A stretch of 16,992 nt of DNA, from positions 2,063-19,054 of the forward strand of contig JBBAUX010000008.1 of the NCBI GenBank assembly GCA_040398005.1, in the 5' to 3' direction. A model generated the notes under the pieces. That model made no database searches and was not told the DNA's origin. It was given only the letters and a program-made list of their open reading frames with translations. Both the position numbers and the translations under genes were made by a program. Source of the stretch: Opitutales bacterium. Its GTDB lineage: Bacteria > Verrucomicrobiota > Verrucomicrobiia > Opitutales > UBA953. Below, piece after piece: positions 1,191 through 16,974 of this stretch (the first letter of the stretch is position 1; every line of letters begins with the position of its first letter).

Positions 1191-1285
1191 CGTGGCCGAT
1201 GGCCACTGGGGGACAAGGTGACAAGTGGGCACGTTGGCAAGGGGAACACCATTGAGGGGACACGGTGACAAGGGGACAAGGGGAG
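1191..1285 (+). repeat. Hairpin plus two octamer (GKKGRCAH) arrays
   Basis: CGTGGCC-GAT-GGCCACT, then GGGGACAA GGTGACAA GTGGGCAC GTTGGCAA GGGGA, then GGGGACAC GGTGACAA GGGGACAA GGGGA. Confidence 0.9.
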
Positions 1286-1339
1286 AGACAGTTACCTGAT
1301 ACGGGTTGCGTTGGGGGGATTTTATAGTAGGATTATATT

Positions 1340-1825
1340 ATGAGAACGACTTGTTTAGTTTGGGTGATGGGGCTTTGTCTGGCTTCTTCGTTGATGGCTG
1401 CCGAAGATAAGAAAAGTGATAAGAAGAATACGACGACTACAACGAACGGCACGATTGATGGTCAAAGAGTGAACACACGTACTTCTACATTTGGAGATGT
1501 CACCACAACCACTGGCACCATGGGTGGTGAGAGGGTAAATACACGCACGTCTACCTTTGGTGGGATTACCACGACCACGGGGACGATTGGTAATAAACGG
1601 ATTGATACTAGGACTTCTACTTTTGGTGGGATAACATCGACGACCGGTAAGCTGGGCGATCAGAGGGTGGATACGCGCACTTCTACGTTTGGTGGTATTA
1701 CAACGACGTCGGGCAAAATTGGTAATGATGCGGTTAAGACAAGGACTTCAACTTTCGGAGGGGTGACAACGACGTCGGGGGATCTGGGCGAAGATGAGAT
1801 TAATTTAAGACAGACGGAATTTTAG
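1340..1825 (+). CDS. Secreted Thr/Gly-rich tandem-repeat protein (about 6 x 22 aa)
   Basis: Signal peptide MRTTCLVWVMGLCLASSLMA/AE; repeats of the form (I/V)TTTTG(T/K)(I/L/M)GxxR(V/I)xTRTSTFGG; the repeat DNA differs mainly at synonymous positions. Confidence 0.8.
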   Translation: MRTTCLVWVMGLCLASSLMAAEDKKSDKKNTTTTTNGTIDGQRVNTRTSTFGDVTTTTGTMGGERVNTRTSTFGGITTTTGTIGNKRIDTRTSTFGGITSTTGKLGDQRVDTRTSTFGGITTTSGKIGNDAVKTRTSTFGGVTTTSGDLGEDEINLRQTEF

Positions 1826-1829
1826 TTAA

Positions 1830-1912
1830 GGGGACAAGGAGCGTGGCCGAAGGCCACGAGGGGACACGGTGACAAGGGGAGAGGCAAAGATACACGGACG
1901 GTGCGCAGTACC
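1830..1912 (+). repeat. Octamer unit, hairpin, octamer array and probable truncated REP
   Basis: GGGGACAA; CGTGGCC-GAA-GGCCACG (1842-1858); A GGGGACAC GGTGACAA GGGGAGAGGCAAAGATACAC; then GGACGGTGC-GCA-GTACC. Confidence 0.85.
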
Positions 1913-2167
1913 TTAGTAGTGGTAGCGTACTTGTAGGATGTAGAGGGTGTTGGCCTCTACGCGGTAAACGAGACGGTGTTCGAGTGTGATTCGTCGTGAC
2001 CACCAGCCGGATAAACTTCCCTTCAGCGGTTCGGGCTTACCGATGCCCGAATGAGGCGACTTTTTAATAGAAGCTATAAGTGTCTGAATTCTTTTAACAA
2101 TGGCGGGCTGATTGCGTTGCCAAAAAACTAAGTCTTCTTCCGCTGCACTGGACCATTTTATTTCCAC
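1913..2167 (-). CDS. yoeB: Txe/YoeB family toxin (ribosome-dependent mRNase)
   Basis: 84 aa; motifs GIGKPEPLK, WSRRIT, EHRLVY and C-terminal RYHY; GTG start overlaps the antitoxin stop codon. Confidence 0.95.
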   Translation of the reverse strand: MEIKWSSAAEEDLVFWQRNQPAIVKRIQTLIASIKKSPHSGIGKPEPLKGSLSGWWSRRITLEHRLVYRVEANTLYILQVRYHY

Positions 2168-2409
2168 GCTTTGCTTTTTTTGAATTTACCAGATGTGAAT
2201 TCATTAATGCCTTTGGCTAGGCGCTTGGCATTCGCGGGTGACGACAGTAAATGCATGGTTTCAACCATCATGGAATATTCTTCGGCGTCCATGAGCACGA
2301 CGGCGGCGGCACCGTTTCGGGTAATCGTGACAGGTTCACGATCCTCGCTGGCTGACTCCATGAGTGAGGCGAGTTGATTGCGGGCATCAGTATAAGAAAC
2401 GGTTTTCAT
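2158..2409 (-). CDS. yefM: Phd/YefM family antitoxin
   Basis: 83 aa from ATG 2409: MKTVSYTDARNQLA, PVTITR, ETMHLLSSPANAKRL. The longer ORF call (start 2550) merely reads through repeat DNA. Confidence 0.93.
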   Translation of the reverse strand: MKTVSYTDARNQLASLMESASEDREPVTITRNGAAAVVLMDAEEYSMMVETMHLLSSPANAKRLAKGINEFTSGKFKKSKAWK

Positions 2410-2444
2410 AGTATCACTAATAGTGTTGTACAGAATTCTGTCAA
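2410..2444 (-). promoter_or_regulatory. yefM-yoeB promoter/operator
   Basis: Minus strand reads TTGACA-16 nt-TATTAG-7 nt-ATG. It contains the TGTACA core (2427-2432) known from E. coli yefM-yoeB operators, plus palindromes ACAGAATTCTGT (2430-2441) and CACTA-A-TAGTG (2415-2425). Confidence 0.6.
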
Positions 2445-2447
2445 TAG

Positions 2448-2630
2448 CGCGACCTTCGGTCGCGAGGGGACACGTGGGCAAGGTGACACGGTGACAAGGG
2501 GAGATGCGAAGAGATAAAGCAGACATTAAATTCATGGGACAAGTGGGCAAGGTGACATGGTGACAAGGGGAACTAGTTCAGGGGGCGAGTTGGCACGTGG
2601 GCAAGGTGACACGGGGACAAGGGGAGATGC
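2448..2630 (+). repeat. Hairpin plus three octamer arrays
   Basis: CGCGACC-TTC-GGTCGCG followed by A GGGGACAC GTGGGCAA GGTGACAC GGTGACAA GGGGAGATGC; further arrays at about 2535-2571 and 2581-2630. Confidence 0.9.
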
Positions 2631-2791
2631 ATTATTTGTGTATGAGTATTTTGATTACGATTTTGGAGATATTTACAGGAACGGGTTGCGGTGGAAAAAA
2701 ATCGTGATACATCAACGGTATTACCTCTGTGGATAAATCCATAAACAGATTCAGATTTTATTTTTAACTTTAACCCTAATCCTATCATAAA

Positions 2792-4330
2792 ATGGCACTC
2801 ATTCATAAACCTGGAACAAGTTGGGACGAAGTGTATCGTCGGGCACGCGCAGCAGCACCCGAAGCTTTTGAAGCCGATCGCGCCGCTAACTTGATTGGCG
2901 GGAAGTGGATATTCGTCGGAGAAACGAAGCCGCATCCTTTGGCTGTCGATGGAACTTTAATTCCGGGCCCACCCCGTATCAGCCGCGAGATTGCGGTCTC
3001 AGCTGTTGAGCAATCCGCTAAGCAACACAAAGAATGGGTGAAAGTTCCGTTGGATGAAAGACAACGTCGGGTAAAGAAATCTTTGGATTATTTACGTGAG
3101 CATCGCGAAGCGATTGTGCATTTGTTAATGTGGGAGATTGGAAAACCCTGGCGCTTGGCTTGTGCCGACTTTGATCGCTGTGTTGAAGGGGTTGATTGGT
3201 ATCTCTGCGAGATTGAAAGGCAGATGCAGGGGAGGGGTCCTTTACCGGGTCCAGTTTCGAATATCGCTTCATGGAATTATCCACTGAGCGTGCTCGTTCA
3301 TGCTGAATTAACGCAGATGTTGGCGGGTAATGCGGTGATTGCAAAGACGCCTTCACAGGGCGGATTCCACGCGCTCACTTTATCACATGCGTTGATGGCG
3401 CGGGCTGGTTTACCGGTCACATTAGTTTCCGGCATTGGCAGTAATTTAAGTGATGCGCTTATTTCTTCCCCGCAACTCGGGGCGCTGGCGTTTGTGGGTG
3501 GACGCTCGAATGGCAGAAAAGCGGCGAGCACTTTGGCGGATTTAAGACGTCGACATATCTTAGAGCAGGAAGGCTTGAACGCTTGGGGCATTTGGAATTT
3601 TTCGCAGTGGGATTTGTTGGCCGGTCATTTGAAAAAAGGTTTCGAGTATGCTAAACAACGTTGTACCGCTTATCCGCGGTATGTGGTGCAGCGCAGATTG
3701 CTGCCCGATTTCCTAGCGACCTATAATAAGGTTATTCAATCGCTGCGCTTTGGTAATCCTTTCGCGGTAGAAAATGCATCGGATGCCTTACCTGATTTCG
3801 ATTTTGGTCCGGTGATCTCCCAGTCCAAGGCGACTGAATTACAGAAGCGTTATGATGAGTCGATTAACACGGGAGGTATTCCGCTGGTCCATGGAGACCT
3901 TGGTGCGGGAAGATTTATTAGTGGTCAGGATACGTCGGGCTATGTGGCACCGGCGTGTGTTTTGAATCCTCCTACTGGATGGGCATTCCATCACAGTGAG
4001 CCCTTTGGACCGATTGATTCCATTGTGATTGTGGATACCGAATCCGAGCTCTTGTCGGCCATGAATGTATCTAATGGATCGCTGGTGGCTTCGATTGCGA
4101 CTGACGATTTAGAATTTGCGGAACGTATTAGACCCGATGTGCAGGCCTTTAAATTCGGGGTGAACGTTCCCCGCAGTCGGGGCGATCGAGCCGAAGTATT
4201 TGGTGGTCGGGGTGCGTCTTGGCGCGGAGCCTTTGTGGGCGGTGACCACCTGATTTCTGCTTTCACTGATGGCGACCAGCCTCTGTTTGGCAACTTCCCC
4301 AACGGCTCGCTTTATCCGGCGAAGACGTAA
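2792..4330 (+). CDS. Aldehyde dehydrogenase family protein (divergent subfamily)
   Basis: Motifs EIGKP, SWNYP (catalytic Asn), AKTP, LEQEG (catalytic Glu), QRCTA (catalytic Cys), EPFGP and GSLVASI. Confidence 0.9.
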   Translation: MALIHKPGTSWDEVYRRARAAAPEAFEADRAANLIGGKWIFVGETKPHPLAVDGTLIPGPPRISREIAVSAVEQSAKQHKEWVKVPLDERQRRVKKSLDYLREHREAIVHLLMWEIGKPWRLACADFDRCVEGVDWYLCEIERQMQGRGPLPGPVSNIASWNYPLSVLVHAELTQMLAGNAVIAKTPSQGGFHALTLSHALMARAGLPVTLVSGIGSNLSDALISSPQLGALAFVGGRSNGRKAASTLADLRRRHILEQEGLNAWGIWNFSQWDLLAGHLKKGFEYAKQRCTAYPRYVVQRRLLPDFLATYNKVIQSLRFGNPFAVENASDALPDFDFGPVISQSKATELQKRYDESINTGGIPLVHGDLGAGRFISGQDTSGYVAPACVLNPPTGWAFHHSEPFGPIDSIVIVDTESELLSAMNVSNGSLVASIATDDLEFAERIRPDVQAFKFGVNVPRSRGDRAEVFGGRGASWRGAFVGGDHLISAFTDGDQPLFGNFPNGSLYPAKT

Positions 4331-4493
4331 CGTGGCCGAAGGCCACGAGGGGACAAGGTACGCGTGCACAGCACGCGAGGGGACACGTGGGCAAGGTGAC
4401 AAGGGGACAAGGGGAGAACAAGTTGAGGTGACACGGTGACATGGGGACAAGGTGACAAGGGGTAGTGAAGGACGCGACGCAGTCGCGCCCCAG
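4331..4493 (+). repeat. Two hairpins, octamer arrays and a degenerate REP
   Basis: CGTGGCC-GAA-GGCCACG (4331-4347) and CGCGTGC-ACA-GCACGCG (4361-4377), each followed by AGGGGACA; arrays run to 4462; GGACGCGAC-GCA-GTCGCGCCCC (4470-4491). Confidence 0.9.
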
Positions 4494-4565
4494 TCTTTAT
4501 AATTAATAACTTAATTTGAAAGGGGCTTAGCGAAGTGCAGAGAACTTCTATGCTGATTGGCGAAC

Positions 4566-4640
4566 GGGCAGCTAGGGTCAGCTGCCCCTACCAGATAATT
4601 CAGGGGACACGTGGGCAAGGTGACATGGGGACAAGGGGGA
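4566..4640. repeat. GTAG-type REP (minus strand) followed by an octamer array
   Basis: GGGCAGCT-AGGGTC-AGCTGCCC-CTAC (4566-4591; reverse strand GTAGGGGCAGCT...); array GGGGACAC GTGGGCAA GGTGACAT GGGGACAA GGGGGA (4603-4640). Confidence 0.8.
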
Positions 4641-4708
4641 TAAAGGGTAGGGGTGTAATTATTATATTATTACAAAAGTAGTATGATTTAATTTAAGCAG
4701 ATTTACTA

Positions 4709-4736
4709 TTGCACATGATTATTTTTGTGCTAGGAA
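4709..4736 (+). promoter_or_regulatory. Putative sigma70 promoter of the rhodopsin gene
   Basis: AT-rich region with TTGCAC (4709-4714), a 16-nt spacer and TGc-TAGGAA (extended -10-like); inverted GCACA/TGTGC half-sites overlap it. Confidence 0.35.
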
Positions 4737-4760
4737 TTAGAACGTACCCCTACAACTACT

Positions 4761-5561
4761 ATGACCTCATACCTAAAATCAGCGTATAATAAGGCATTCA
4801 TGTTCTTCATGTTTTGCTTTATGATCACCCCAGCATCTGTGAAAGCCGCTACACTCGGCGCAGCAGATTTAAAAGCAACTGACTACGTTGGAGTATCCTT
4901 CTGGGTAATCTCCATGGCGTTAGTTGCTGCGACTGCGTTCTTCTTCCTGGAAATCCAGCGCGTGTCTCCTAAGTGGAAAACCTCGTTGACTGTTTCAGGT
5001 TTAGTAACGCTCGTTGCTGCTACTCACTACTTCTACATGCGTGATGTATGGGTCGCTTCACAATCAACCCCTACCGTTTATCGTTATATCGATTGGTTGA
5101 TCACTGTTCCTCTCTTGATGGTTGAGTTCTACATCATCCTCTCAGCTGTAACTAACGTACCTGGTCGCGTTTTCTGGAAATTAATCATCGGTACTTTAGT
5201 CATGCTTATCGGCGGTTATGTTGGTGAAGCCGGTTTAATGGCTGCAACTCCTGCCTTCGTTATCGGCATGGTAGGTTGGGCATACATCATCTTCGAAATC
5301 TATGCTGGTGAAGCTGGTCAAATCAACGCCAACTCGGCAACCCCTGCTGTACAAGAAGCTTTCAAGCTCATGCGCAACATCGTGGTGATTGGTTGGGCGA
5401 TTTATCCTCTTGGATACTACTTCGGTTACATGACTGGTGCTTCTCCTGCAGACAGCCAGAAGACTCTTAACGTTGTCTACAATCTTGCAGATTTCGTGAA
5501 CAAGATCGCCTTCGGTGTTATCATCTGGAAGTGCGCTGTTAGCGAATCCGACAAACGATAA
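4761..5561 (+). CDS. Proteorhodopsin, predicted green-absorbing light-driven H+ pump
   Basis: YRYIDWLITVPLLMVEF gives the D97/T101/E108 (DTE) motif with Leu105; His75 in ATHYFYMR; ADFVNKIAFG holds the counter-ion Asp and Schiff-base Lys; 7 TM segments after an N-terminal leader. Confidence 0.97.
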   Translation: MTSYLKSAYNKAFMFFMFCFMITPASVKAATLGAADLKATDYVGVSFWVISMALVAATAFFFLEIQRVSPKWKTSLTVSGLVTLVAATHYFYMRDVWVASQSTPTVYRYIDWLITVPLLMVEFYIILSAVTNVPGRVFWKLIIGTLVMLIGGYVGEAGLMAATPAFVIGMVGWAYIIFEIYAGEAGQINANSATPAVQEAFKLMRNIVVIGWAIYPLGYYFGYMTGASPADSQKTLNVVYNLADFVNKIAFGVIIWKCAVSESDKR

Positions 5562-5574
5562 GTTTGTGCGAACG

Positions 5575-5615
5575 ATCGGACAATGGAGTCGACTGGCTTC
5601 ATTGTCCGATTTTTT
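5575..5615 (+). terminator. Intrinsic terminator after proteorhodopsin
   Basis: ATCGGACAATGGAGTC-GACT-GGCTTCATTGTCCGAT (16-bp stem with two G-U pairs) followed by a T run. Confidence 0.8.
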
Positions 5616-5687
5616 CGTTTTCAGTATCCGTGGGCCCCTCGCCCTCTTTGTTAGGTAACCTTTAATTTTCGGAACTTACCCCTACCG

Positions 5688-6557
5688 ATGAATACAATCA
5701 CCGACATCACCCAACAAGCGGTTGAACGTCTGATGCTTGATATGGTTATGGTAGCCATAAAGCCAGAAGATCAAGCCATCCCGGCTACGATTAAGGCTGC
5801 GCAATACCACCTAGAAGCAGGCGGACAACGTGTCCGAGCTAAGTTAGCCCTGCATGCCTGTCAGTGCCTTGGAGTTAAGATTGAAGACGCTGTGCGAATC
5901 GCAGCGGCAGTCGAATTACTCCACAATGCATCCCTGGTGCATGACGATTTACAAGACGACGAAAAGCTTCGTCGCGGACTGCCGACCGTATGGGCGGCTT
6001 TTGGCAAAGATGTAGGCATTTGTACGGGCGATATTTTATTATCAGCTGCATACGGTGCGCTTTCCGAAGTCAGTAACCCGAAATTAATCCCAGCGCTCCT
6101 TCGACGCGTCCATGTGCGTACCGCGATGGTGATTCAGGGTCAGTGCTCAGAGCTTTCGGCTAAGGATTGTGCGGTTACCGATTTATCTCAGTATGAGTCG
6201 ATCGTGATTGGTAAATCTGGAGCGCTGTTGAGTCTCCCGATTGAGTTAGCTTTTATCGCGTCGGGACACGAAACGTGGACGAAGCGAATTCAAGATGCGG
6301 CGCATACCTTTGGCGTGGGATATCAAATGGTCGACGACTTAGAAGATATCAAAACCGATACCGAGAAACATAATCTGAATATTGTATTAGTGCTCCAGGC
6401 TTCGGGCGAAGGTCAGCAAGCGACCAAGTTGGCGCGTAAATTCGCCCAACAGTATTTGGATCGGGCGATTTCATTGGCGGAGAGTTTACCGGAAGATTCA
6501 GGATCTTTGTTAGCTGAATTTGCCTTAGTTCTGGGCAAACGACTGAAAGCAGACTAA
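5688..6557 (+). CDS. crtE: Geranylgeranyl pyrophosphate synthase
   Basis: GGQRVR, ELLHNASLVHDDLQD..RRG (first Asp-rich motif), GQ, KSGAL, YQMVDDLED (second motif); first gene of the retinal cluster. Confidence 0.9.
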   Translation: MNTITDITQQAVERLMLDMVMVAIKPEDQAIPATIKAAQYHLEAGGQRVRAKLALHACQCLGVKIEDAVRIAAAVELLHNASLVHDDLQDDEKLRRGLPTVWAAFGKDVGICTGDILLSAAYGALSEVSNPKLIPALLRRVHVRTAMVIQGQCSELSAKDCAVTDLSQYESIVIGKSGALLSLPIELAFIASGHETWTKRIQDAAHTFGVGYQMVDDLEDIKTDTEKHNLNIVLVLQASGEGQQATKLARKFAQQYLDRAISLAESLPEDSGSLLAEFALVLGKRLKAD

Positions 6558-6566
6558 GTTTTCGGC

Positions 6567-8036
6567 GTGAAAGTTTTAGTCATTGGCACTGGATTTGGTG
6601 GCATCGCCGCAGCGTTACGTTTGCGGGCGAAGGGCTATGAGGTCGTGGTTATCGATCGTTGTGCGACGGTGGGCGGTCGGGCTCAGGTTTTTGAGCGTGA
6701 AGGCTTTCGGCATGATGCGGGACCCACGGTGATTACTGCACCGTTTTTATTCGAAGAACTTTTTAAACTCTTTGGTGAAAAATTATCTGACCATGTAAAC
6801 TTAGTGCCCGTGAAGCCTTGGTATCGATTTCATTTTAGTGACGGGAGTGAGTTTGATTATGGGGGCACGTTAGAAGAAACCTTGACGGAGATTGCGAAGA
6901 TTGAGCCCGCTGACTGCGAAGGGTATATGAAATTATTGGCTCACTCTAAGAAAATTTATCAGGTTGGGTTTGAAAAATTATCGGCAGAACCCTTTCACAA
7001 ATTTTGGACGATGGTAAAGCAGGTGCCGGCGTTGTTGAGATTAAGAAATTATGAGACCGTTTGGCAGATGGTTTCGCGCCATTTAAAAAGTCCAAAGCTC
7101 CGCCAGGCTTTTTCAATCCAACCTTTGTTAGTGGGCGGAAATCCTTTTGATACCACGAGCATTTATGGCCTCATTCATTATTTAGAACGAGAGCATGGGG
7201 TGCACTTCGTGATGGGTGGGACGGGTGCGCTGACTAAGGCCTTGGCGGATTTGATGGTCAGGCATGGCGTGCAGGTGCGACTCAACACTTCGGTGGCGTC
7301 TATTAAAATTAAAGACGGAGTGGCGTGTGGCGTTGTCCTGGCTGATGGAACGGAGATGGCGGCGGATCTTGTCGTATCGAATGCCGACGCGGCGCATTTA
7401 TATCAGAACATGGTTAAGCCCGAGGATCGTTCGGTGATGAGTGGGTTGAAACTCAAGGCGGCCCATTATTCGATGGGTCTGTATGTGCTTTATTTTGGAA
7501 CGAAGAAGCAATATCCTAAGGTGGCGCATCATACTATTTGGATGGGTAAGCGCTATCGGGAACTCTTGGATGATATTTTTCATAAGAAAATATTAGCGGA
7601 TGACTTTTCACTTTATTTACATCGTCCGACCGCCACCGATCCCAGTTTTGCGCCGGAAGGGTGTGACAGTTTTTATGTGCTGTGTCCGGTGCCCAATATG
7701 CAGTCGGGTATTGATTGGACGATTGAGGAACCCAAATTACGCGCTAAAATTATTCAAGCATTGGACGAGACTATTTTACCGGGCCTAAAGGAAAATATTG
7801 TAGCCGACTTTGCGATGACTCCGGCGGACTTTAAAAATAATTATGAAAGTGTCCATGGGGCTGGATTTTCGGTTGCGCCGCTCTTTAGGCAGTCGGCCTG
7901 GTTTCGTTTTCATAATAAAGCCGAAGGTATTAAGAATCTCTATTTGGTGGGTGCGGGAACGCATCCGGGGGCGGGATTGCCAGGCGTGTTATGTTCGGCC
8001 AAGGTGATTGACGCTCTCATACCCGCGACGAAATGA
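6567..8036 (+). CDS. crtI: Phytoene desaturase
   Basis: FAD-binding VIGTGFGG, DAGPTVIT, C-terminal LYLVGAGTHPGAGLPGVLCSAK; GTG start. Confidence 0.96.
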   Translation: MKVLVIGTGFGGIAAALRLRAKGYEVVVIDRCATVGGRAQVFEREGFRHDAGPTVITAPFLFEELFKLFGEKLSDHVNLVPVKPWYRFHFSDGSEFDYGGTLEETLTEIAKIEPADCEGYMKLLAHSKKIYQVGFEKLSAEPFHKFWTMVKQVPALLRLRNYETVWQMVSRHLKSPKLRQAFSIQPLLVGGNPFDTTSIYGLIHYLEREHGVHFVMGGTGALTKALADLMVRHGVQVRLNTSVASIKIKDGVACGVVLADGTEMAADLVVSNADAAHLYQNMVKPEDRSVMSGLKLKAAHYSMGLYVLYFGTKKQYPKVAHHTIWMGKRYRELLDDIFHKKILADDFSLYLHRPTATDPSFAPEGCDSFYVLCPVPNMQSGIDWTIEEPKLRAKIIQALDETILPGLKENIVADFAMTPADFKNNYESVHGAGFSVAPLFRQSAWFRFHNKAEGIKNLYLVGAGTHPGAGLPGVLCSAKVIDALIPATK

Positions 8037-8968
8037 AATCGGACAACCCACAGCTTCGTCGGGCGGAAGAAATTCTGGCAAAAAAAGGGAAGAGTTTTCA
8101 TTGGGCGAAGAAGTTGTTGTGTACGAAGCATGGTGAGCGGGCGACGAGGCTTTATGCCTTTTGTAGGTATTTGGATGACTTGGCGGATGAGGCGACAACA
8201 CCCGTGCAGGCGAGGGTGGCGTTGATGGAGGTAAGTCAATCGCTACAGACGGGTCGCACGAACGATCCCGTGGTGGCGGATGCGATTAATTTGATGAGTG
8301 ACTGTCGGATTGAGCCACAGATTCCCCAGGAGCTCATCAACGGATTATTAACGGACTTAGACGAAGTTGAGCTGAAGACCGTAGATGAATTATTACGATA
8401 CTGTTATCGGGTGGCTGGGACGGTGGGGTTGATGATGAGTGATGTTCTGGATGTTAAAGATCCAGCGGCGTCGCCTTTTGCGATTGATTTGGGAATAGGT
8501 ATGCAGCTCACGAATATTTGTCGGGATGTATTGGAGGACGCAAAAATGGGTCGACGTTACATACCCACGGAAATCATCGGTAAAATATCCTTAGATGATT
8601 TGATTAATCCATCGGCGGCACAGCAGGAACGTCTCCGTAAAGCGCTCTATTTTTTACTCAATTTAGCCGATGAATATTACGACAGCGGGGAGAGTGGCTT
8701 ACCCTATTTACCGTTACGCGCGCGGCATGGAATATTGATTGCCGCGAAGGTTTATGGTGCAATTGGACTGAAACTGAGGTCACTGGATTATCGTTATTGG
8801 GATGGGCGGGTCGTGATTCCGAAAACGCGAAAGCTGAGTATTACTTTTATGGCGTTGGGTGGCACTTTAGTGGATAGCGGGTTTTGGACGAAGCCGATTC
8901 GACATCGGGCGGAGCTACATCGGGCGCTGCATGCCTTACCCAGAGTAGATACCAGCTATGGAATCTGA
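8033..8968 (+). CDS. crtB: Phytoene synthase
   Basis: KSF, LYAFCRYLDDLAD, YCYRVAGTVG, LGIGMQLTNICRDVLEDA..GRRYIP; ATGA overlap with crtI. Confidence 0.95.
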   Translation: MKSDNPQLRRAEEILAKKGKSFHWAKKLLCTKHGERATRLYAFCRYLDDLADEATTPVQARVALMEVSQSLQTGRTNDPVVADAINLMSDCRIEPQIPQELINGLLTDLDEVELKTVDELLRYCYRVAGTVGLMMSDVLDVKDPAASPFAIDLGIGMQLTNICRDVLEDAKMGRRYIPTEIIGKISLDDLINPSAAQQERLRKALYFLLNLADEYYDSGESGLPYLPLRARHGILIAAKVYGAIGLKLRSLDYRYWDGRVVIPKTRKLSITFMALGGTLVDSGFWTKPIRHRAELHRALHALPRVDTSYGI

Positions 8969-10100
8969 TTATGATTTAATTATTATGGGAGGCGGGTGTG
9001 CGGGGCTCAGTTTAGCGATGCGTTTGGCGGAGTTGGGCGACCAGTGTCCGCGTGTTGCGATTATTGAGCGCCGTGAAAACTATGTGCATGATCGCACTTG
9101 GAGTTATTGGGCAACCGAGTCTGCTCAATTAACTCACTTAGCTAAATCAGATTGGAAAAAAGTCTTAGTCGGTGCGGCTGACCAGCGTGTGGTCGTGGAT
9201 TGTGACAAGACACCTTATCAATCGATTCATTCGGACGCCTTTTATCAGTCAGCCCTACGTAAAATTTACAAAAATAAACGGATTGATTTATTTTTAGGAG
9301 AATCGGTTGGGGTTATGCATAAGAAAAATAATCTTTGGCTGGTAAATATTCAAAATAGATTCGTCAGTGCACCGCAGATTATCGACACGCGACCCCCGAA
9401 ACGTACGAGTGATGATGCACCTATTTTATGGCAGTCATTCAGCGGGGTTGAGGTTAAGTGCGACCAGGGAGTTTTTGATGATAAGATTGCAACGTTGATG
9501 GATTTTACTGCAGGCACTTCGGACGAAATTAGATTTCTATATTTGTTACCCTATAGTTCGACATGTGCATTGATTGAGGCTACCGTTTTTGGAAAGCACG
9601 CGATGTCGCAGGGTGAGCTCGCCGCGATGTTGGATGGATTAGTTAAGAAATCGGTGGGATCGGTTGCTTACGAGATAACCTATCGGGAGCACTTTGTGAT
9701 TCCTATGGGGTTGGGTGATTACGTGCCAGGTAGTGACCCCTCTTACGTAACTGTTGGATTGGAATCGGGAGGCGCCAGGGCGTCGACTGGCTATGTGTTT
9801 CAGCGGATTCAGCGGTGGGCTAAAGGAGCGGTATCTGAGATAAAGAACGGTAAACCAGTCTCGGGTCATTCGCGGGACTCCTGGGTGGTTAGAAAGATGG
9901 ATTCGATTTTCCTGAGGGTATTAGAGCGTTATCCTGAGCGTGGGCCAGAGATTTTTATAAGGCTGTTTTCGATGCGCGATACGGGGTCGGTCATACGTTT
10001 TATGAATGACGAACCAACGCTTTCGGATATATTAAGGATTATGAGTGCCTTACCTTCGGGTATTTTTATCAAGGAACTTATGAGAGGATTTTTCCGATGA
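8958..10100 (+). CDS. crtY: Lycopene beta-cyclase
   Basis: DLIIMGGGCAGLSLA, DRTWSYW, LMDF, FLYLLP, ALIEAT, GG..RASTGY; located between crtB and blh. Confidence 0.88.
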   Translation: MESDYDLIIMGGGCAGLSLAMRLAELGDQCPRVAIIERRENYVHDRTWSYWATESAQLTHLAKSDWKKVLVGAADQRVVVDCDKTPYQSIHSDAFYQSALRKIYKNKRIDLFLGESVGVMHKKNNLWLVNIQNRFVSAPQIIDTRPPKRTSDDAPILWQSFSGVEVKCDQGVFDDKIATLMDFTAGTSDEIRFLYLLPYSSTCALIEATVFGKHAMSQGELAAMLDGLVKKSVGSVAYEITYREHFVIPMGLGDYVPGSDPSYVTVGLESGGARASTGYVFQRIQRWAKGAVSEIKNGKPVSGHSRDSWVVRKMDSIFLRVLERYPERGPEIFIRLFSMRDTGSVIRFMNDEPTLSDILRIMSALPSGIFIKELMRGFFR

Positions 10101-10972
10101 ACCTCATTCGAATTCAAGGTGTCCTCTTTGGAGTCATCTCCATTATCTGTTTATTGGCTTCGCTGTTTTTACCGGTGCTGGATAAGCAGACTGAGCTGAT
10201 CTTAGTGGCGGCTTTGATTATTATTCTCGGTGTTCCGCATGGTGCTTTGGACACACTCTTTGCGCGGGAATTATATGGAGTTAATTCAGCCACCGCGTGG
10301 ATTAAATTTTCGGTGATTTATTTGATGATGGCCGCACTGGTGGTGGTTTTGTGGTACATGGCGCCTCTTTTATTTCTAATGGGGTTTATTGGGATTTCGA
10401 TTGCGCACTTTTCGGGTGATCCGGATGGCGAGACTGGATGGTTCATTCGACTCATTTATGGTGGGGCGATTATTTTTATTCCCGTTTTAAAACATCCCCA
10501 GGAAATTGCGGATGTGTTTACTTTACTGGTGGGGGAGAAGAGTAGTCAGGCGTTGATGCCATGGATGTCGGGTTTAGCATTACCTTGGCTATTAGCGCTA
10601 TCGGCCGTGGTACTTTTTCTGCTCGTTAAGAAGTCACCCCTCAGTTTTGAGTTTTTATGTTTAGGACTCATCGCTTATTTTGTTTCACCCCTTATTTCGT
10701 TCACTATTTTCTTTTGTGGAATGCATAGTGCGAGGCACATTATTCGAACCGCCGCTTTCGCGAAATACTCGCAGCCCGTTTTACTTTTAGGTGCGATGCT
10801 ATTGCCGATGCTTGGCGTGTTGGTGATGTCGGTTGCTTCTTGGTATATGTTGAAGAATCAAAGTCTGGATGGTCGCGTTGTGCAGATTGTGTTTGTGGGT
10901 CTGGCTGCACTTACCGTGCCCCACATGGCATTGGTAGAGCAGGTGAGGGTGAAGGGGTGGATTGCTAAGTAG
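10097..10972 (+). CDS. blh: Beta-carotene 15,15'-dioxygenase (Brp/Blh)
   Basis: Multi-TM protein with His motifs GVPHGALD, AHF, HSARH and ALTVPHM; last gene of the cluster. Confidence 0.93.
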   Translation: MNLIRIQGVLFGVISIICLLASLFLPVLDKQTELILVAALIIILGVPHGALDTLFARELYGVNSATAWIKFSVIYLMMAALVVVLWYMAPLLFLMGFIGISIAHFSGDPDGETGWFIRLIYGGAIIFIPVLKHPQEIADVFTLLVGEKSSQALMPWMSGLALPWLLALSAVVLFLLVKKSPLSFEFLCLGLIAYFVSPLISFTIFFCGMHSARHIIRTAAFAKYSQPVLLLGAMLLPMLGVLVMSVASWYMLKNQSLDGRVVQIVFVGLAALTVPHMALVEQVRVKGWIAK

Positions 10973-11049
10973 GGGACACGTGGGCAAGGTGACAAGTTGG
11001 CTAGGGGAGAGGCAAAGATACACTTATCGATGCAATAGCGCCCCTACTT
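10967..11049. repeat. Octamer array, linker and degenerate REP bounded by 9-bp inverted repeats
   Basis: AAGTAGGGG (10967-10975) ... CCCCTACTT (11041-11049), enclosing GGGGACAC GTGGGCAA GGTGACAA GTTGGCTA GGGGAGAGGCAAAGATACAC. Confidence 0.8.
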
Positions 11050-11068
11050 GATTAAAACTCAACTGCCC

Positions 11069-11305
11069 TTACTTCGTAATAAAGGGGCGGGTGGAGGCTT
11101 GGCACCAGAGTTTGTAAATATTGATTACGTTTTTGCGAATGCCGGTGACAGGGATTTTTAGGAAGCCATTGCGTTTGGCGGCCTCGAAAAGAATACGTTC
11201 TTTTTGGGTGAGCCGATGTCCGACACCGCGATTACCGATTTTACCGCGCGTCGACTCTCCGCGGCTGAGCTTTTCGATGTCGTCTTTACGGGGGCGAGGG
11301 GGCAT
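11069..11305 (-). CDS. Small basic hypothetical protein (78 aa)
   Basis: ATG at 11305 (MPPRPRKDD...) just outside the repeat block; fills the gap between two repeat clusters; Arg/Lys-rich. Confidence 0.65.
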   Translation of the reverse strand: MPPRPRKDDIEKLSRGESTRGKIGNRGVGHRLTQKERILFEAAKRNGFLKIPVTGIRKNVINIYKLWCQASTRPFITK

Positions 11306-11319
11306 GGTGATTTGGTTTA

Positions 11320-11490
11320 GGGGACAAGTTGGCAAGGTGATCTAGTTTAGGGGACAAGTGGGCAAGTGGGCATGGTGACAAGGGGAAGAAACCTCAAGGC
11401 AAGAGCCAACATTCCATCAAGGTGACAAGGGGAGAGGCAAAAGCAAATGGACGCGAGTGAAACTCGCGAGGGGACAAGGTTACATGGGGA
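11320..11490 (+). repeat. Several octamer arrays plus a hairpin
   Basis: Duplicated GTTTAGGGGACAAGT starts; arrays; CGCGAGT-GAA-ACTCGCG (11452-11468) followed by AGGGGACAA GGTTACAT GGGGA. Confidence 0.88.
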
Positions 11491-11532
11491 AAACAATTGC
11501 AGGGGAGGTGGGGAGTGTTACTGAATAAACTA

Positions 11533-13113
11533 ATGAAGGGGGCGTTACTATTTTCTTTAATCCTAGCGAACGGAATATTTGCGGCCGAGTTGCCGGTGTC
11601 GTTCGTGGGGAGTGGGCCGGAATTAAAATATTTAAAGACTGAGCGAGGAGATCAAGTGTGTGATTTCTCGCATGCGGGCTATGGTGGTGGCGGCGTTGCA
11701 TTTCCGACATCGAACAATAAAAAGTCGGTTGGGTCCGTGACGGGTGACGCTTCAGAAGCTATCCAATCAGCCATTAATCAAGTGGCGTCGATGCCCTTAG
11801 TGGACGGCGTGCGTGGCACGGTTGAGTTGGCCGCAGGCACCTATTATTGTTCAAAAACTTTAGCGATTAAAACCAGTGGCATCATTATAAAAGGTGCGGG
11901 CAGTGCGGCGGGTGGAACGGTAATTAAATTAACTGGCAAACCTCATATTGCGATTATGATAGCGCATGAAGTGACCCAAGGTGAGGGCAAAGACTCGAGG
12001 AAAAAATCGAAAGCGGAAAATAGTAGCGAAGGGAAGTCGAGAAGTGCATCTAAACCCACTAAAATTACCAACGATTATGTCCCGTCGGGAACTACGGTGA
12101 TCAATGTCCAGTCGGTGTCGGGTCTGAAATTAGGCGACACTATTGAGATTACACGGGAGGCGACCAAGGAGTGGATTCGTTTTATGGAGATGGATAATTT
12201 GATGGATGGAGGAAAGTTGGAGACGTGGATGAAGGAGGACCGTCAGATTACGTATGTCCGAAAAATTAAATCGATTAAGGGAAATCAAATCATGGTTGAT
12301 ATCCCGTTGACCGATTGTATCGACACGCAGTTATTAAATAAGTCCGATATTCTACGCATTCTGGCGACAGTGACGAAGGTTGAACCGCCGAAAAAAATTT
12401 CGAGGTGTGGGCTGGAAAATTTCAAAATTGATGCACCCAATCCGGTGGGGGACTGGCGGGATGCGCAGAATATAGGAGTGATTATTAATGATGCGGAAGA
12501 CATTTGGATGAAGAATGTGGGCATGAAGAACACTTTTCCTGATGTGCAGGTGGGCGAGGATTCGCGGCGGGTGACGGTTGAGGCGTTAAAGACTGAGCAT
12601 CCTGGGGAGATTAAGCAGAGTGAGAAATCCAACGGGTATGCTTCGTATGTGCGACTCTTGGGGGCGCAGGTATTAATGAATAAATGCAATATCAGTGGGG
12701 ATAATGCATTTTATATTTCGACGGCGAATCCAGCGTCGCAACTCAATGTCATTTTAAATTCAACGTTTTCGGGTAACGGCTCGATTGAGCCACACATGAC
12801 ATGGTCGACTGGATTATTGCTCGATAACTGTAAGCTGAATCAGGGTGAAATCAGTATTAGGAATCGCGGTAAAGCGGGGTCGGGTCACGGCTGGACAATG
12901 GGCTGGTCGGTCGTTTGGAATTGTTCAGCGAAAAATATTACCATCGAGCAGCCACCGGGGGCGACCAATTGGTGTGTGGGATCGAGCGGAAAGTATGAAG
13001 TCGAAGACAAGGGCAAGAGCGCTTGGCTTTTCATGAAAGGGTCGTCAGTGACGCCCAGTAGTTTGTATCAGGCGCAGCTGGCAGTGCGCCTAGGGGACAA
13101 GGGGACACGGTGA
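11533..13113 (+). CDS. Secreted right-handed beta-helix (pectate lyase-like) carbohydrate-active protein
   Basis: Signal peptide MKGALLFSLILANGIFA from ATG 11533; DFSHAGYGGG, DASEAIQSAI, GTVELAAGTY, IIIKGAG, EPHMTWSTGLLLDN, GHGW and SLYQAQL. Confidence 0.8.
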   Translation: MKGALLFSLILANGIFAAELPVSFVGSGPELKYLKTERGDQVCDFSHAGYGGGGVAFPTSNNKKSVGSVTGDASEAIQSAINQVASMPLVDGVRGTVELAAGTYYCSKTLAIKTSGIIIKGAGSAAGGTVIKLTGKPHIAIMIAHEVTQGEGKDSRKKSKAENSSEGKSRSASKPTKITNDYVPSGTTVINVQSVSGLKLGDTIEITREATKEWIRFMEMDNLMDGGKLETWMKEDRQITYVRKIKSIKGNQIMVDIPLTDCIDTQLLNKSDILRILATVTKVEPPKKISRCGLENFKIDAPNPVGDWRDAQNIGVIINDAEDIWMKNVGMKNTFPDVQVGEDSRRVTVEALKTEHPGEIKQSEKSNGYASYVRLLGAQVLMNKCNISGDNAFYISTANPASQLNVILNSTFSGNGSIEPHMTWSTGLLLDNCKLNQGEISIRNRGKAGSGHGWTMGWSVVWNCSAKNITIEQPPGATNWCVGSSGKYEVEDKGKSAWLFMKGSSVTPSSLYQAQLAVRLGDKGTR

Positions 13114-13175
13114 CAAGGGTCGCGAGCACAGCTCGCGAGGGGACACGTGGGCAAGTTGGCACGTGGGCAAGGGGA
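13093..13175 (+). repeat. Octamer arrays plus a hairpin
   Basis: GGGGACAA GGGGACAC GGTGACAA; CGCGAGC-ACA-GCTCGCG (13121-13137); A GGGGACAC GTGGGCAA GTTGGCAC GTGGGCAA GGGGA. Confidence 0.9.
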
Positions 13176-13176
13176 A

Positions 13177-14604
13177 TTAGTTTACGGGGAGTTGGGCGGA
13201 AGTGGATTTGAGCCACGCGTCTAACTTTTTCTTTAAACTATTTTTGATTTCAATTTCTGAATTGGAGAGATCGAGTGACTCGCCTGGATCTTTTGCTAAA
13301 TTATAAAGTTCGTCTCGATTGTCTTCGTAGAAATGGATGAGGCGATAATCGCCGCTACGGATGGTGCTGTAGGGTCTGGCACCGCCGACGCGATGGTAGT
13401 GTGGGTAGTGCCAGAAGAGGTCACGTGTGGGCAGTATAGCTGCCGATTTAAGAAGTGGAGTCAGGCTTACGCCGTCGATGATGGAAGGTTGTGAGGTGAT
13501 GCCAGCCATCTCAATCAGTGAAGGGTAGATATCGATAGACTGAACCGGTGTAGATTGAGCCGATTGATTGGCAGTAGCTTTTGGCCAATAGATGATGAAG
13601 GGGACGCGTACGCCGCCTTCGTAGGCTGAGCCTTTGCCGTCGCGGTGGGGTGAGTTGTCGGTTACTTTAGGAAGTCCGCCATTATCGCTAGTGAATACGA
13701 TGATGGTGTTATCTGATAATTTTAGACGTTTCAGTGTTTCGCGGATTTTCCCGACTGAGTCATCCACGCTCGAAATCAGAGCAGCGTAGGTGGCGTTATT
13801 TTGTTTGAGATTGGTTTTATCTTTTTGTTCGAACTTTTTAATCACATCGGCTTTACCGGCAATCGGTTGATGAACCGCGTAATGCGCGAGATACAAGAAA
13901 AAGGGTTTAGTTTGGTTTTGCTCAATGAATTTAACGGCTTCATCGCCTTCGCGGTCGGTTAAGAACTCGTTCGTCGGTCCGTCTTGAAGATTTGGAATTT
14001 TATAAGGTGAGAAAAAACTTCCAGGCTGTCCGAGGTGATTACCGCCGAGATTAATATCGAAGCCATATTTCTGTGGGCTATAGTTATCGAATTCTTTGGC
14101 GTTAGGCGACAGGTGCCATTTGCCGATGAGTGCGGTGGAATACCCTGCGGATTTAAATTGCTGCGGTAGTGTGGTGGTGTCGGACGAAATAAATTTCCGC
14201 CAATCTGGGATTTTTACTTTGGCATTATCGGGTGCGGGATAACCAGGAATCCAATCCGTGAGGTGGAGTCGGGCGGGGTATTTTCCGGTGAGTAAAGCGG
14301 CACGACTGGGAGAGCAGACGGTAGAGGAAGAATAGGCCTGAGTGAACTGAACGCCGTCTTTGGCGAGCTGATCGATGTTGGGTGTCTCGTAGAACTTACT
14401 GCCTGTGCAGCCAAGGTCGGTAGCGCCCAAGTCGTCGGTAAGAATGACGATGACGTTGGGAGGGCTCGCTAAGACTGGCGCGGTAAGAAGAATAAATGAT
14501 AATATCAGGGGACATGTTGGCAAGGTGACACGGTGACAAGGGGAAATGCTCGGACACCACGCAATGGCGCCCCTACCTAATAAAAATGTGCGCAAGCGAT
14601 GCAT
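13177..14604 (-). CDS. Sulfatase (Cys-type, formylglycine-dependent S1 family), secreted; start codon uncertain
   Basis: PNVIVILTDDLG, catalytic CSPSRAALLTG, GKWHL, AVHQP, FTSDNGG, KGSAYEGGVRVP, ELYNL; hydrophobic leader LILSFILLTAPVLA. Confidence 0.92.
   Translation of the reverse strand: MHRLRTFLLGRGAIAWCPSISPCHRVTLPTCPLILSFILLTAPVLASPPNVIVILTDDLGATDLGCTGSKFYETPNIDQLAKDGVQFTQAYSSSTVCSPSRAALLTGKYPARLHLTDWIPGYPAPDNAKVKIPDWRKFISSDTTTLPQQFKSAGYSTALIGKWHLSPNAKEFDNYSPQKYGFDINLGGNHLGQPGSFFSPYKIPNLQDGPTNEFLTDREGDEAVKFIEQNQTKPFFLYLAHYAVHQPIAGKADVIKKFEQKDKTNLKQNNATYAALISSVDDSVGKIRETLKRLKLSDNTIIVFTSDNGGLPKVTDNSPHRDGKGSAYEGGVRVPFIIYWPKATANQSAQSTPVQSIDIYPSLIEMAGITSQPSIIDGVSLTPLLKSAAILPTRDLFWHYPHYHRVGGARPYSTIRSGDYRLIHFYEDNRDELYNLAKDPGESLDLSNSEIEIKNSLKKKLDAWLKSTSAQLPVN
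14508..14576. repeat. Octamer array plus GTAG REP lying inside the sulfatase 5' coding region
   Basis: GGGGACAT GTTGGCAA GGTGACAC GGTGACAA GGGGA; then GGACACCA-CGCAA-TGGCGCCC-CTAC (14552-14576). Confidence 0.85.
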
Positions 14605-14615
14605 TATGAATTGAG

Positions 14616-14745
14616 GGGACACACTAATTTAGGGGACACGTGGGCAAGGTGACACGGGACGCGAGCGTAGCTCGCGAGGGGACATGGTGACATGGGGACA
14701 CGGTGACAAGGGGTAGTGAAGGACGCGACACAGTCGCGCCCCTAC
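14616..14745. repeat. Octamer arrays, hairpin and GTAG REP
   Basis: CGCGAGC-GTA-GCTCGCG (14660-14676); arrays; GGACGCGAC-ACA-GTCGCGCCC-CTAC (14721-14745). Confidence 0.9.
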
Positions 14746-14771: not shown

Positions 14772-15542
14772 TCACGCGAGGCCGCGTTTGGTAGCTTGAG
14801 CGAAGGCGATGAACTTTTCTGTAATTCGATTTTTCTTTTCAACCTGAGCTTTTTCAATCGCCTGTGAGGTATTTAATCCGTCGCGGTAAAAGAGTTTAAA
14901 TAGGTTTTTTGCTGAGGCGACTTCTTCGGGAGAAAATCCAGCACGAGTGATTCCGACGACGTTGACCATTTTAGTTTCGGCGGGATTACCATCGGCGATC
15001 ATGTAAGGAGCAACGTCTTGGACGCATTTAGAACAAGCAGCAATCATCGCGTAGTCACCGATATTACAGAATTGGTGGATGCCTGCATTCCAAGCGATGT
15101 TGACGTGGTCACCGACGTGGACGTGTCCGGCGACGGCCGAGTGACTGGAGATGACGACGTTGTTGCCGATAACGCAATCGTGTGCGATGTGCGAGTAGGC
15201 GAGGAGAACGTTGTTATCGCCGAGGATGGTCCATTCGCCATCTTGGGTGCCCGAGTGAACGCTGACATATTCTCTGAAAATATTTTTTGATCCCACTTTG
15301 AGGCCGGTTTTACCGGGTCGACCTTTGAGATCTTGAGTGCGACCACCAATGAGAGCGTAGGGAAACACTTCGCAGTCGGGTCCCAGTTGAGTGAAACCTT
15401 CGACCGTAGCGTGGTGATGAATCGTGCAACCCTCGGCTAGGGTCACATCAGCACCAATGAATGCGTAGGCACCAATCGTTACATTGTGGCCGATTTTAGA
15501 GCCTGATTCGACGATTGCCGTAGGGTGAATCGAAGAAGCCAT
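14772..15542 (-). CDS. lpxA: Acyl-ACP--UDP-N-acetylglucosamine O-acyltransferase
   Basis: IHPTAIV hexapeptide repeats, QDLK, IFREYVSVH, HIAHDC, AGHV, HQF and DVAPY; directly downstream of fabZ. Confidence 0.95.
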   Translation of the reverse strand: MASSIHPTAIVESGSKIGHNVTIGAYAFIGADVTLAEGCTIHHHATVEGFTQLGPDCEVFPYALIGGRTQDLKGRPGKTGLKVGSKNIFREYVSVHSGTQDGEWTILGDNNVLLAYSHIAHDCVIGNNVVISSHSAVAGHVHVGDHVNIAWNAGIHQFCNIGDYAMIAACSKCVQDVAPYMIADGNPAETKMVNVVGITRAGFSPEEVASAKNLFKLFYRDGLNTSQAIEKAQVEKKNRITEKFIAFAQATKRGLA

Positions 15543-15547
15543 TGTGA

Positions 15548-16888: not shown

Positions 16889-16937
16889 ACCTATATTCAG
16901 TTATTCACAGGCGTTATACTCTGTAAAGCAAAGTTAA

Positions 16938-16974
16938 GGGGACAAGTGGGCATGTTGGCACGGGGACATGGGGA
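16938..16974 (+). repeat. Octamer array
   Basis: GGGGACAA GTGGGCAT GTTGGCAC GGGGACAT GGGGA. Confidence 0.88.

Follow-up and report, generated by a model that had tools for sequence, protein, structure and literature searches.

The stretch of DNA analyzed here, which we call the window, comprises 16,992 nucleotides (nt) from an Opitutales bacterium (assembly GCA_040398005.1, contig JBBAUX010000008.1, positions 2,063 to 19,054 of the forward strand; its genome, G000, spans 1.44 Mb in 14 contigs and is 94% complete) and contains eight 17-nt hairpins. With moderate confidence, we take these hairpins to be interchangeable heads of the arms of PF05635 gene cassettes, and the arms to be joints of gene cassettes, likely through host homologous recombination. 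A sequence-only reading of the window had noticed the hairpins, but overlooked the larger unit, an arm of tandem octamers, and the place of this arm at the joints of shuffled cassettes.

Each window hairpin forms the 5′ head of an arm. The arm is about 37 nt long and is composed of A, GGGGACA, three further octamers of the form H-G-K-K-G-R-C-A, and then AGGGG. All eight hairpins were found exactly where the sequence-only reading had placed them. Seven of them have a perfect 7-bp stem with a 3-nt loop (a 7/3 hairpin) and AGGGGACA on their 3′ side, and the one at 1191 has a single terminal mismatch and GGGGGACA on its 3′ side. The window contains no perfect 7/3 hairpins other than these seven, compared with a chance expectation of about one, and AGGGGAC occurs there at 23 sites only. 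Across G000 there are 145 perfect 7/3 hairpins compared with 91 to 160 for other loop lengths (0 to 9 nt), and a genome-wide excess of this geometry was thus rejected; AGGGGAC adjoins 20 of the 145, 15 on the plus and 5 on the minus strand. The heads and arms of the window are as follows.

1191..1207, plus strand: hairpin head with one terminal mismatch, loop GAT
1842..1858, plus strand: hairpin head, loop GAA
2448..2464, plus strand: hairpin head, loop TTC; G009 has the same head at this flank
4331..4347, plus strand: hairpin head immediately 3′ of the stop codon of the aldehyde dehydrogenase gene; AT-rich head instead in G053
4361..4377, plus strand: hairpin head, loop ACA, nested behind a truncated arm
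11452..11468, plus strand: hairpin head, loop GAA, T-A closing pair
13121..13137, plus strand: hairpin head, loop ACA
14660..14676, plus strand: hairpin head, loop GTA
17..31, plus strand: truncated octamer arm bounding the Fic module on its left
1209..1283, plus strand: octamer arm cluster, joint between Fic and the 161-amino-acid (aa) open reading frame (ORF)
1830..1880, plus strand: octamer arm cluster, joint between the 161-aa ORF and yoeB-yefM
2465..2625, plus strand: octamer arm cluster, joint between yefM and aldehyde dehydrogenase
4348..4639, plus strand: octamer arm clusters with remnants of GTAG-footed repetitive extragenic palindromes (GTAG REPs), joint between aldehyde dehydrogenase and the rhodopsin operon
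10971..11008, plus strand: octamer arm overlapping the blh stop codon
11298..11490, plus strand: octamer arm cluster, joint between the 88-aa and 526-aa ORFs
13093..13175, plus strand: octamer arm cluster into which the 526-aa ORF runs and inside which it stops
14507..14713, plus strand: octamer arm clusters, joint between sulfatase and lpxA; absent in G053, G066 and G009, present in G065
16937..16974, plus strand: octamer arm beyond lpxC-fabZ
14721..14745, minus strand: GTAG REP, a separate family often found behind an arm; also at 14552-14576, 11023-11047 and 4565-4591

Arms have one of two kinds of head, a hairpin or an AT-rich word (AATTGA, for instance). In G000, a hairpin ends 0 to 3 nt 5′ of 21 of the 60 arm starts and follows only 1 of the 60 arm ends, while 34 of 2,859 random positions (1.2%) adjoin one. 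Hairpin-headed starts are similarly found elsewhere (9/20 in G065 and 47/143 in regions of close relatives). Among the orthologous arms compared, the hairpin head was present, absent or swapped for another, it took the place of the AT-rich head rather than being added to it, and no target duplication was seen. Some heads overlap the final codons of the upstream gene, and changes there are mirrored on both sides. Their sequences vary, with stems of 6 to 13 bp and 3-nt loops in 111 of 141 heads, a set enriched by our own pattern searches. Arms or hairpin heads also supply the stop codons or last codons of adjoining genes, e.g., at 13093-13113 and 10970-10972 of the window and at L150:2040-2110.

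The genome contains 66 arm clusters in both orientations, many of them as inward-facing pairs, and its arms by orientation number 30 forward and 24 reverse. The single-strand polarity, which the sequence-only reading had seen as fitting a family that acts on single-stranded DNA, is therefore local to the window. Since arms lie at four contig ends of G000 and beside 8 of its 23 scaffold gaps, arm-rich loci are under-assembled, and the counts are lower bounds. Of 60 arms, 44 lie 3′ of a gene that runs in the same direction, compared with about 41% expected from spacer orientations. Polarity along the replichores, like that of FtsK-orienting polar sequences (KOPS), was rejected given the two orientations and the inverted pairs; arm direction agrees with the local GC skew in 51 of 65 cases, and gene orientation together with cassette duplication explains this agreement better. 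Arms were found in 23 of 24 genomes of the same genus and in none of 16 from other families of the order. A genus-wide search with the outer four stem pairs fixed detected the hairpin motif in 42 of 96 genomes, and a scan of one genome per species gave 73 motif loci, 72 in Verrucomicrobiota (mostly Opitutales) and 1 under a Polynucleobacter name.

The stems co-vary, as had been claimed from the window alone, and their structure is kept through changing sequence. In an ungapped 17-mer alignment of 82 copies (64 distinct rows), 97.5% of the stem cells of the distinct rows were paired. Cells changed on both sides numbered 66 compared with 18.9 after shuffling, with none of 500 shuffles as high. 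The covariation score was 0.393 compared with 0.110 for shuffled sets and at most 0.085 for slid controls, a figure that is not a probability because the copies are related; still, nine further pair types occur. For 74 of the 82 rows, the search pattern itself had set the outer CGCG, which confines the free test of covariation to the inner three pairs. T.G was the commonest of the non-Watson-Crick pairs (9/29). GNA triloops, put forward by the sequence-only reading, are enriched among the 89 perfect 17-mers (GNA 41, ANA 19, GNT 16), but account for only four of the eight window loops. Passages of PMC13037366 describe the very stable DNA mini-hairpin for GNA loops only and its RNA counterparts as much weaker; with 41 of 89 loops of this type, the preference is real but partial. 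Folding energies told apart neither the two strands nor DNA from RNA, because the energy model contains no special GNA term. An Rfam search of the window returned zero matches at E values up to 1.

The arms belong to an element with a gene of its own. The sole PF05635 gene of G000 (C1:214677-215090), which encodes a four-helix-bundle protein, lies between two inward-facing arms of the window type (C1:214595-215205), and PF05635 genes in inverted arms were likewise seen across the genus and the phylum. In the genus, PF05635 was found in 81 of 96 genomes. Among the 30 best-scoring loci, inspected by eye, 22 carried this arm type and 8 other octamers; the arm was present on both sides in 21 of the 22 and cut by a contig end in the remaining one, most of the 22 being one orthologous locus. 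Across the phylum, PF05635 occurred in 57 of 81 sampled genomes with unrelated arms of 7- to 8-nt units, and a hairpin adjoined the outer edge of 6 of 39 detected PF05635 arms compared with 13 of 666 control windows (p ~1e-4). Next to the gpmI end, a hairpin with the 7-bp/3-nt geometry but another sequence directly precedes a different octamer family in 5 of 25 genomes, and mini-hairpins also occur inside the octamer arrays there. Arms lacking the gene are scattered through the genome. We also observed further octamer families in the genus (GTGCAAAG, GAGTATCG, GATTACGG, GGTTGGCT, GTTGATCA and GAGGCTCA; loci L374, L377, L381, L384, L390, L303, L316, L320, L006 and L133), some nested in one another and some with mini-hairpins of their own.

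The window is an array of modules (Fic, the 161-aa ORF, yoeB-yefM, aldehyde dehydrogenase, the rhodopsin-carotenoid-blh operon, the 88-aa ORF, the 526-aa ORF and sulfatase) that ends at lpxA and lpxC-fabZ, with arm clusters at the module joints. The modules are as follows.

15..1118, minus strand: Fic-family gene (Pfam); arm-bounded in lake contigs
1340..1825, plus strand: 161-aa ORF with no Pfam or NCBIfam match; precedes the 526-aa ORF in G066 and G009
1913..2409, minus strand: toxin-antitoxin pair yoeB-yefM, which G043 has at another arm locus
2792..4330, plus strand: aldehyde dehydrogenase; left neighbors differ in G053 and G066
4761..10972, plus strand: rhodopsin, carotenoid synthesis and blh, six genes with no internal arm
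11069..11335, minus strand: 88-aa ORF with no family match, start uncertain
11533..13113, plus strand: 526-aa ORF, weak DUF4955 match
13177..14502, minus strand: sulfatase
14772..16888, minus strand: conserved flank, lpxA and lpxC-fabZ

Relatives with matches of mostly 79 to 95% identity have the modules in other orders and interspersed with extra ones, including a peroxidase-ankyrin pair, DUF3800, DUF347 and pairs with helix-turn-helix (HTH) genes. (An Abi label for the protein at L292:1610-2347 and toxin labels for the partners of two HTH genes were dropped, as none had a Pfam match.) At this locus, close relatives show 25 adjacencies that are new relative to G000, four of them within new modules. 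Of the 21 between modules, 19 carry an arm on the same strand, another shows a 17-mer next to a degenerate arm, and the last a GTAG REP only. No arm was found inside the rhodopsin operon, the toxin-antitoxin pair or lpxA-lpxC in the genomes compared. The rhodopsin, carotenoid and blh genes form a single arm-bounded block, whose neighbors differ in G009, G060, G008 and G066.

Similar changes were seen at other arm loci. A site that is empty in G000 (C2:174332) and G053 (C35) is filled in G066 (C46) with a DUF3800 gene and a second, duplicated arm. A comparison with G065 that covered 1,251,713 bases, most though not all of that genome, with 1.146 Mb aligned at 85%, revealed only two rearranged junctions, the two ends of one inversion of the PF05635 gene, each lying in an arm. 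The same flip was found in G104, with the hairpin still on the outer flank; G053, G066 and G008 carry a GTAG REP and a short arm in place of the PF05635 gene. Among 134 arm junctions in eight relatives, 38 match a G000 junction, 11 combine two G000 arm flanks in another way, 39 have one flank in common with G000 and 46 have none. The head follows the left flank (0.58 compared with 0.38) and the tail the right flank (0.68 compared with 0.62), and the exchange therefore falls inside the arm. No fixed crossover point could be placed among these junctions because the arm units turn over too fast.

Several features of the modules were noted alongside. The 161-aa protein begins with a hydrophobic N-terminal segment and contains a TRTSTFGG repeat in five copies. 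Two bases separate the hairpin at 2448 from a minus-strand TTGACA -35 hexamer of the yefM promoter, and this region (2425-2464) also contains a TGTACA palindrome, which we take to be of the kind that serves as the YefM operator. A conserved untranslated stretch lies behind DUF3800-like cassette genes (L277:5811-5900, L292:2440-2500 and G000:C1 around 36440-36520) and may be akin to the RNA motifs named after DUF3800.

These arrangements could be brought about as follows. Arms of the four-helix-bundle elements would spread without the gene and settle immediately behind stop codons, where they may serve as short homologies for exchange on incoming or sister DNA. A cassette would consist of one gene module and one arm. 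Exchange between direct arms would add, remove or reorder a module together with one arm and keep the array in one orientation, while exchange between inverted arms would flip the intervening DNA. Integration at an arm would duplicate that arm in direct orientation, which would therefore give the window its one-strand polarity. The joining is probably done by RecA-type exchange, helped by natural transformation; both RecA and ComEC are present in the genome. The 17-mers themselves may be small palindromes like the small dispersed repeats (SDRs) of cyanobacteria, kept perfect as single-stranded DNA hairpins and spreading with the arm that follows.

Lake data suit this picture. Contig sets from three public lake runs contain Fic and yoeB-yefM pieces that stop at arms, at depths below those of their neighbors (72 and 62 compared with 167 in X3, 327 and 350 compared with 787 in X4, and 7 and 5 compared with 137 in X11). 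These are contigs and not reads, however, their depth does not give a proportion of cells, and X3 and X4 are so alike that they may not be independent. Nearly all the joints in lake contigs have short sides within the repeats and were set aside, as was the missing coverage of the Fic module in X8. An RNA run (X19) touches arms in a way not established as transcription. Those limits of the lake data are among several points that weigh against recombination between arms. The rearrangements and their joints are plain in the sequences; the enzyme and the role of the hairpin are inferred, and recombination was not seen in action. Arms of about 37 nt whose variable positions are 60 to 70% identical are poor substrates for RecA. 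The weak point of homologous exchange is that it does not account for hairpins of unrelated sequence standing in exact register with the arm. One copy of a new joint (F36/F14 in G066) has no arm, and the arm between sulfatase and lpxA is absent in three of five genomes. Genes can also come and go in the ordinary way with no arm involved, as 49 of 50 indel or replacement junctions relative to G065 have none, many of them being scaffold-gap artefacts. Six arm-bearing genomes (G043, G053, G008, G066, G090 and G007) gave no PF05635 match. The hairpins, moreover, are not confined to arms: the 17-mer also precedes GTAG REPs at six loci, and hairpins stand at stop codons without arms in G108 and G079. 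We observed CGCG 17-mers directly before GGTAGGGGC, the start of the GTAG REP, at L083, L140, L058, L322, L381 and L391, G093 being among the genomes concerned though it has no arm of this type. The arm-less hairpins overlap or directly follow the stop codons of gpmI and an aminotransferase gene (L365 and L327 in G108, and L371 in G079).

The register of hairpin and arm is what a dedicated system would explain. In such a system, for which the four-helix-bundle protein might act as guide, a nick in the G-rich strand at the arm's outer edge would free the 3′ end of the flank. This end would fold back on itself through a 3-nt loop, prime a copy of the flank and then be rejoined to an arm, making the hairpins scars or signals and the arrays products of site-specific exchange. 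The hairpins stand only 5′ of arms and in register, as snap-back would have it, and 3-nt loops predominate. At several loci, including the phylum loci L345, L357 and L361, the left arm of the hairpin is the end of the upstream gene, and strain-specific changes there recur as mirror images in its right arm. Both PF05635 matches and arms are lacking in G083 and G108, and the PF05635 (23S_rRNA_IVP) protein is related to Avd (NCBIfam E 3e-5; PDB 2gsc; parts of PMC10053308). However, neither the genome searches nor inspection of the DNA beside the arrays turned up a candidate nuclease or recombinase, the crossovers could not be assigned to any fixed point, and arms are abundant in the six genomes with no PF05635 match. 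The mirrored changes at gpmI are better read as an incoming 17-mer, because G090 has a 17-mer detached from the gene end. Altogether, we regard a dedicated nicking system as unlikely. We are equally doubtful about a related idea, an integrase-free, integron-like system in which the hairpin-capped PF05635 arms would be dedicated exchange sites cut at the hairpin-arm joint, with the PF05635 protein as the specificity factor; were it true, a streamlined freshwater bacterium would be swapping toxin-antitoxin, defence and light-harvesting modules by means of its arms.

A role in RNA, with the hairpins as stems that protect or terminate 3′ ends after stop codons, RNA selection keeping them paired and arms inserting beside such stems or recruiting them, appears quite unlikely. 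It would suit the excess of arms 3′ of co-oriented genes, the prominence of T.G pairs and the arm-less stems at or after stop codons in G108 and G079. Hairpin-headed arms, however, are not enriched 3′ of co-oriented genes (13/19 compared with 31/41; Fisher p 0.55), no U-tract follows the hairpins on the G-rich strand, and several hairpins lie mid-cluster or on the promoter side of a gene (2448 and 4361 in the window). The 3-nt, GNA-rich loops argue in the same direction, RNA mini-hairpins being much less stable than DNA ones according to passages of PMC13037366.

The sequence-only reading had proposed that the hairpin and GGGGACA form the recognition end of a non-autonomous REP-like family moved as single-stranded DNA by a Y1/HUH transposase, and had pointed to a Y1 or RAYT gene flanked by these hairpins as the thing to look for. 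Fixed 3′ sides combined with variable 5′ sides suit HUH chemistry, and the arm-hairpin layout has both. A single Y1 transposase gene does exist in the genome (C6:1173-2090; tblastn found no second one in G000), an arm stands just outside terminal repeats in L001 and L019, and 34 of 73 arm starts read GGGGACAC and fit GGGGWSAS, the motif of TIRYT ends according to passages of PMC3733652 and PMC6006769. The Y1 gene, however, is flanked by its own palindromic GGGGTCAGAC repeats, whose ends form a small family of their own, and not by the window hairpins, and the short RAYT-like genes of relatives whose flanks were examined carry GTAG REPs. Among 40 near-complete genomes, homologs of the Y1 protein were found in 16 and arms in 36, with arms and no Y1 match in G070 (58 arms), G053 and G065, and a Y1 match and no arms in G052 and G093. 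Of the 73 arm starts, 39 do not fit GGGGWSAS, 37 of them reading GGGGACAA or GGGGACAT, which break it. Other octamer families with the same hairpin geometry are wholly without it, and a GTAG foot is lacking (GTAG lies within 9 nt 5′ of 4 of 107 17-mers, and of none of the 18 in G000). With ends of its own on the Y1 gene and no co-occurrence with the arms, movement by this transposase is very unlikely.

The GGGGTCAGAC repeats and the GTAG REPs make up families of their own in G000. L001 (C6:1-2140) is a clean TIRtron, in which a 305-aa Y1 transposase lies between dimers of palindromic GGGGTCAGAC repeats and an ADP-ribosylglycohydrolase gene is enclosed by a further set; other copies lie at C1:317.5-318.7 kb, C3:22.5 kb and C6:56.9 kb. 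The GTAG REP family occupies about 15 genome sites, usually behind an arm. No cognate short RAYT for it was found in G000, and relatives have REPtrons (L027, L028 and L031-L035). Searches of the 94% complete genome found no reverse transcriptase (PF00078), serine recombinase, IS110 element or integron integrase IntI, and just two tyrosine recombinases (PF00589), both XerC/D-like by sequence and context. The window spacers contain no attC core pairs; the sole RYYYAAC/GTTRRRY pair lies inside a coding gene at 7280-7419.

Returning to the arms as joints exchanged through host recombination, we see several consequences. Gene-shuffling cassette arrays are known mainly from integrons, and here the same outcome appears in a 1.4-Mb lake bacterium in which no integrase was found, with a 37-nt repeat as the joint. 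The rhodopsin-carotenoid operon is a movable block at this locus, and PF05635, a widespread family of unknown function, becomes linked with its arms to measurable genome behavior. Two arms with or without a hairpin head make a small testable substrate. Should host recombination suffice, it would account for the local hypervariability of these genomes, and should a dedicated protein be required, the recombination chemistry would be new.

Neither PF05635 arms with hairpin heads nor arrays made from such arms were found described in the literature searched, which mostly does not cover subscription journals. The promoter-stem-loop (PeSL) cassettes of T4-type phages are repeated stem-loop elements thought to aid the shuffling of gene modules by host or phage recombination. 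Unlike them, the elements described here lie on a bacterial chromosome, include a tandem octamer repeat and are not known to have a shared promoter. The SDRs, reportedly described by Elhai et al. in 2008 within short tandem repeats (STRR) of Nostocaceae, are palindromes of about 20 nt in which compensatory changes keep the structure, set in short tandem repeats and with no encoded enzyme. Compared by description, the hairpins share with SDRs, as we understand their definition, the size of about 20 nt, the compensatory structure and the tandem-repeat setting, but are 17 nt long, occur in Opitutales and always stand directly 5′ of an octamer arm. We know of no shuffled gene cassettes associated with SDRs. 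SDRs are cited in PMC5861425, PMC2884548 and PMC3116915, the first of which states that they were not found in HIP1-rich cyanobacteria outside Nostocaceae.

With the REP/RAYT and TIR/TIRYT families, as described in passages of PMC3733652, PMC6006769 and PMC3116915, the hairpins share the extragenic clustering of short palindromes, alternative complementary stems and 2- to 3-nt loops. The arm start also fits in part the GGGGWSAS motif that passages of PMC3733652 and PMC6006769 assign to the TIRtron arrangement, the TIR sequence list accompanying PMC3733652 might include this arm, and genuine GTAG REPs and a TIRtron coexist with the arms in G000. In contrast to these families, there is no GTAG/CGTC tag, no hairpin-flanked Y1 gene and no co-occurrence with Y1, and unrelated stems take the same position. 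Diversity-generating retroelements differ in that G000 has no reverse transcriptase match (PF00078). The hairpin-arm repeats are therefore not members of REP/RAYT, TIR/TIRYT or the diversity-generating retroelements.

Sedentary chromosomal integrons, as presented in PMC12614218, resemble the window array in having modules that run in one direction with a short repeat closing each, and cassettes that are gained, lost and reordered. A competence gene is present here as well, and the cargo here (toxin-antitoxin, Fic, DUF3800, NYN and DUF1810) is alike. They differ in that here no IntI was found, the spacers are without attC cores and the repeat is not one long hairpin, and in that the cassettes here hold genes in both directions and whole operons, with inverted arm pairs giving inversions. 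Compared with PF05635 genes in inverted tandem-repeat arms as such, the system described here adds a hairpin head in register and direct arms that form multi-kilobase arrays. What is new is that these arms are the joints of cassette arrays, and that the hairpin head is tied to the arm.

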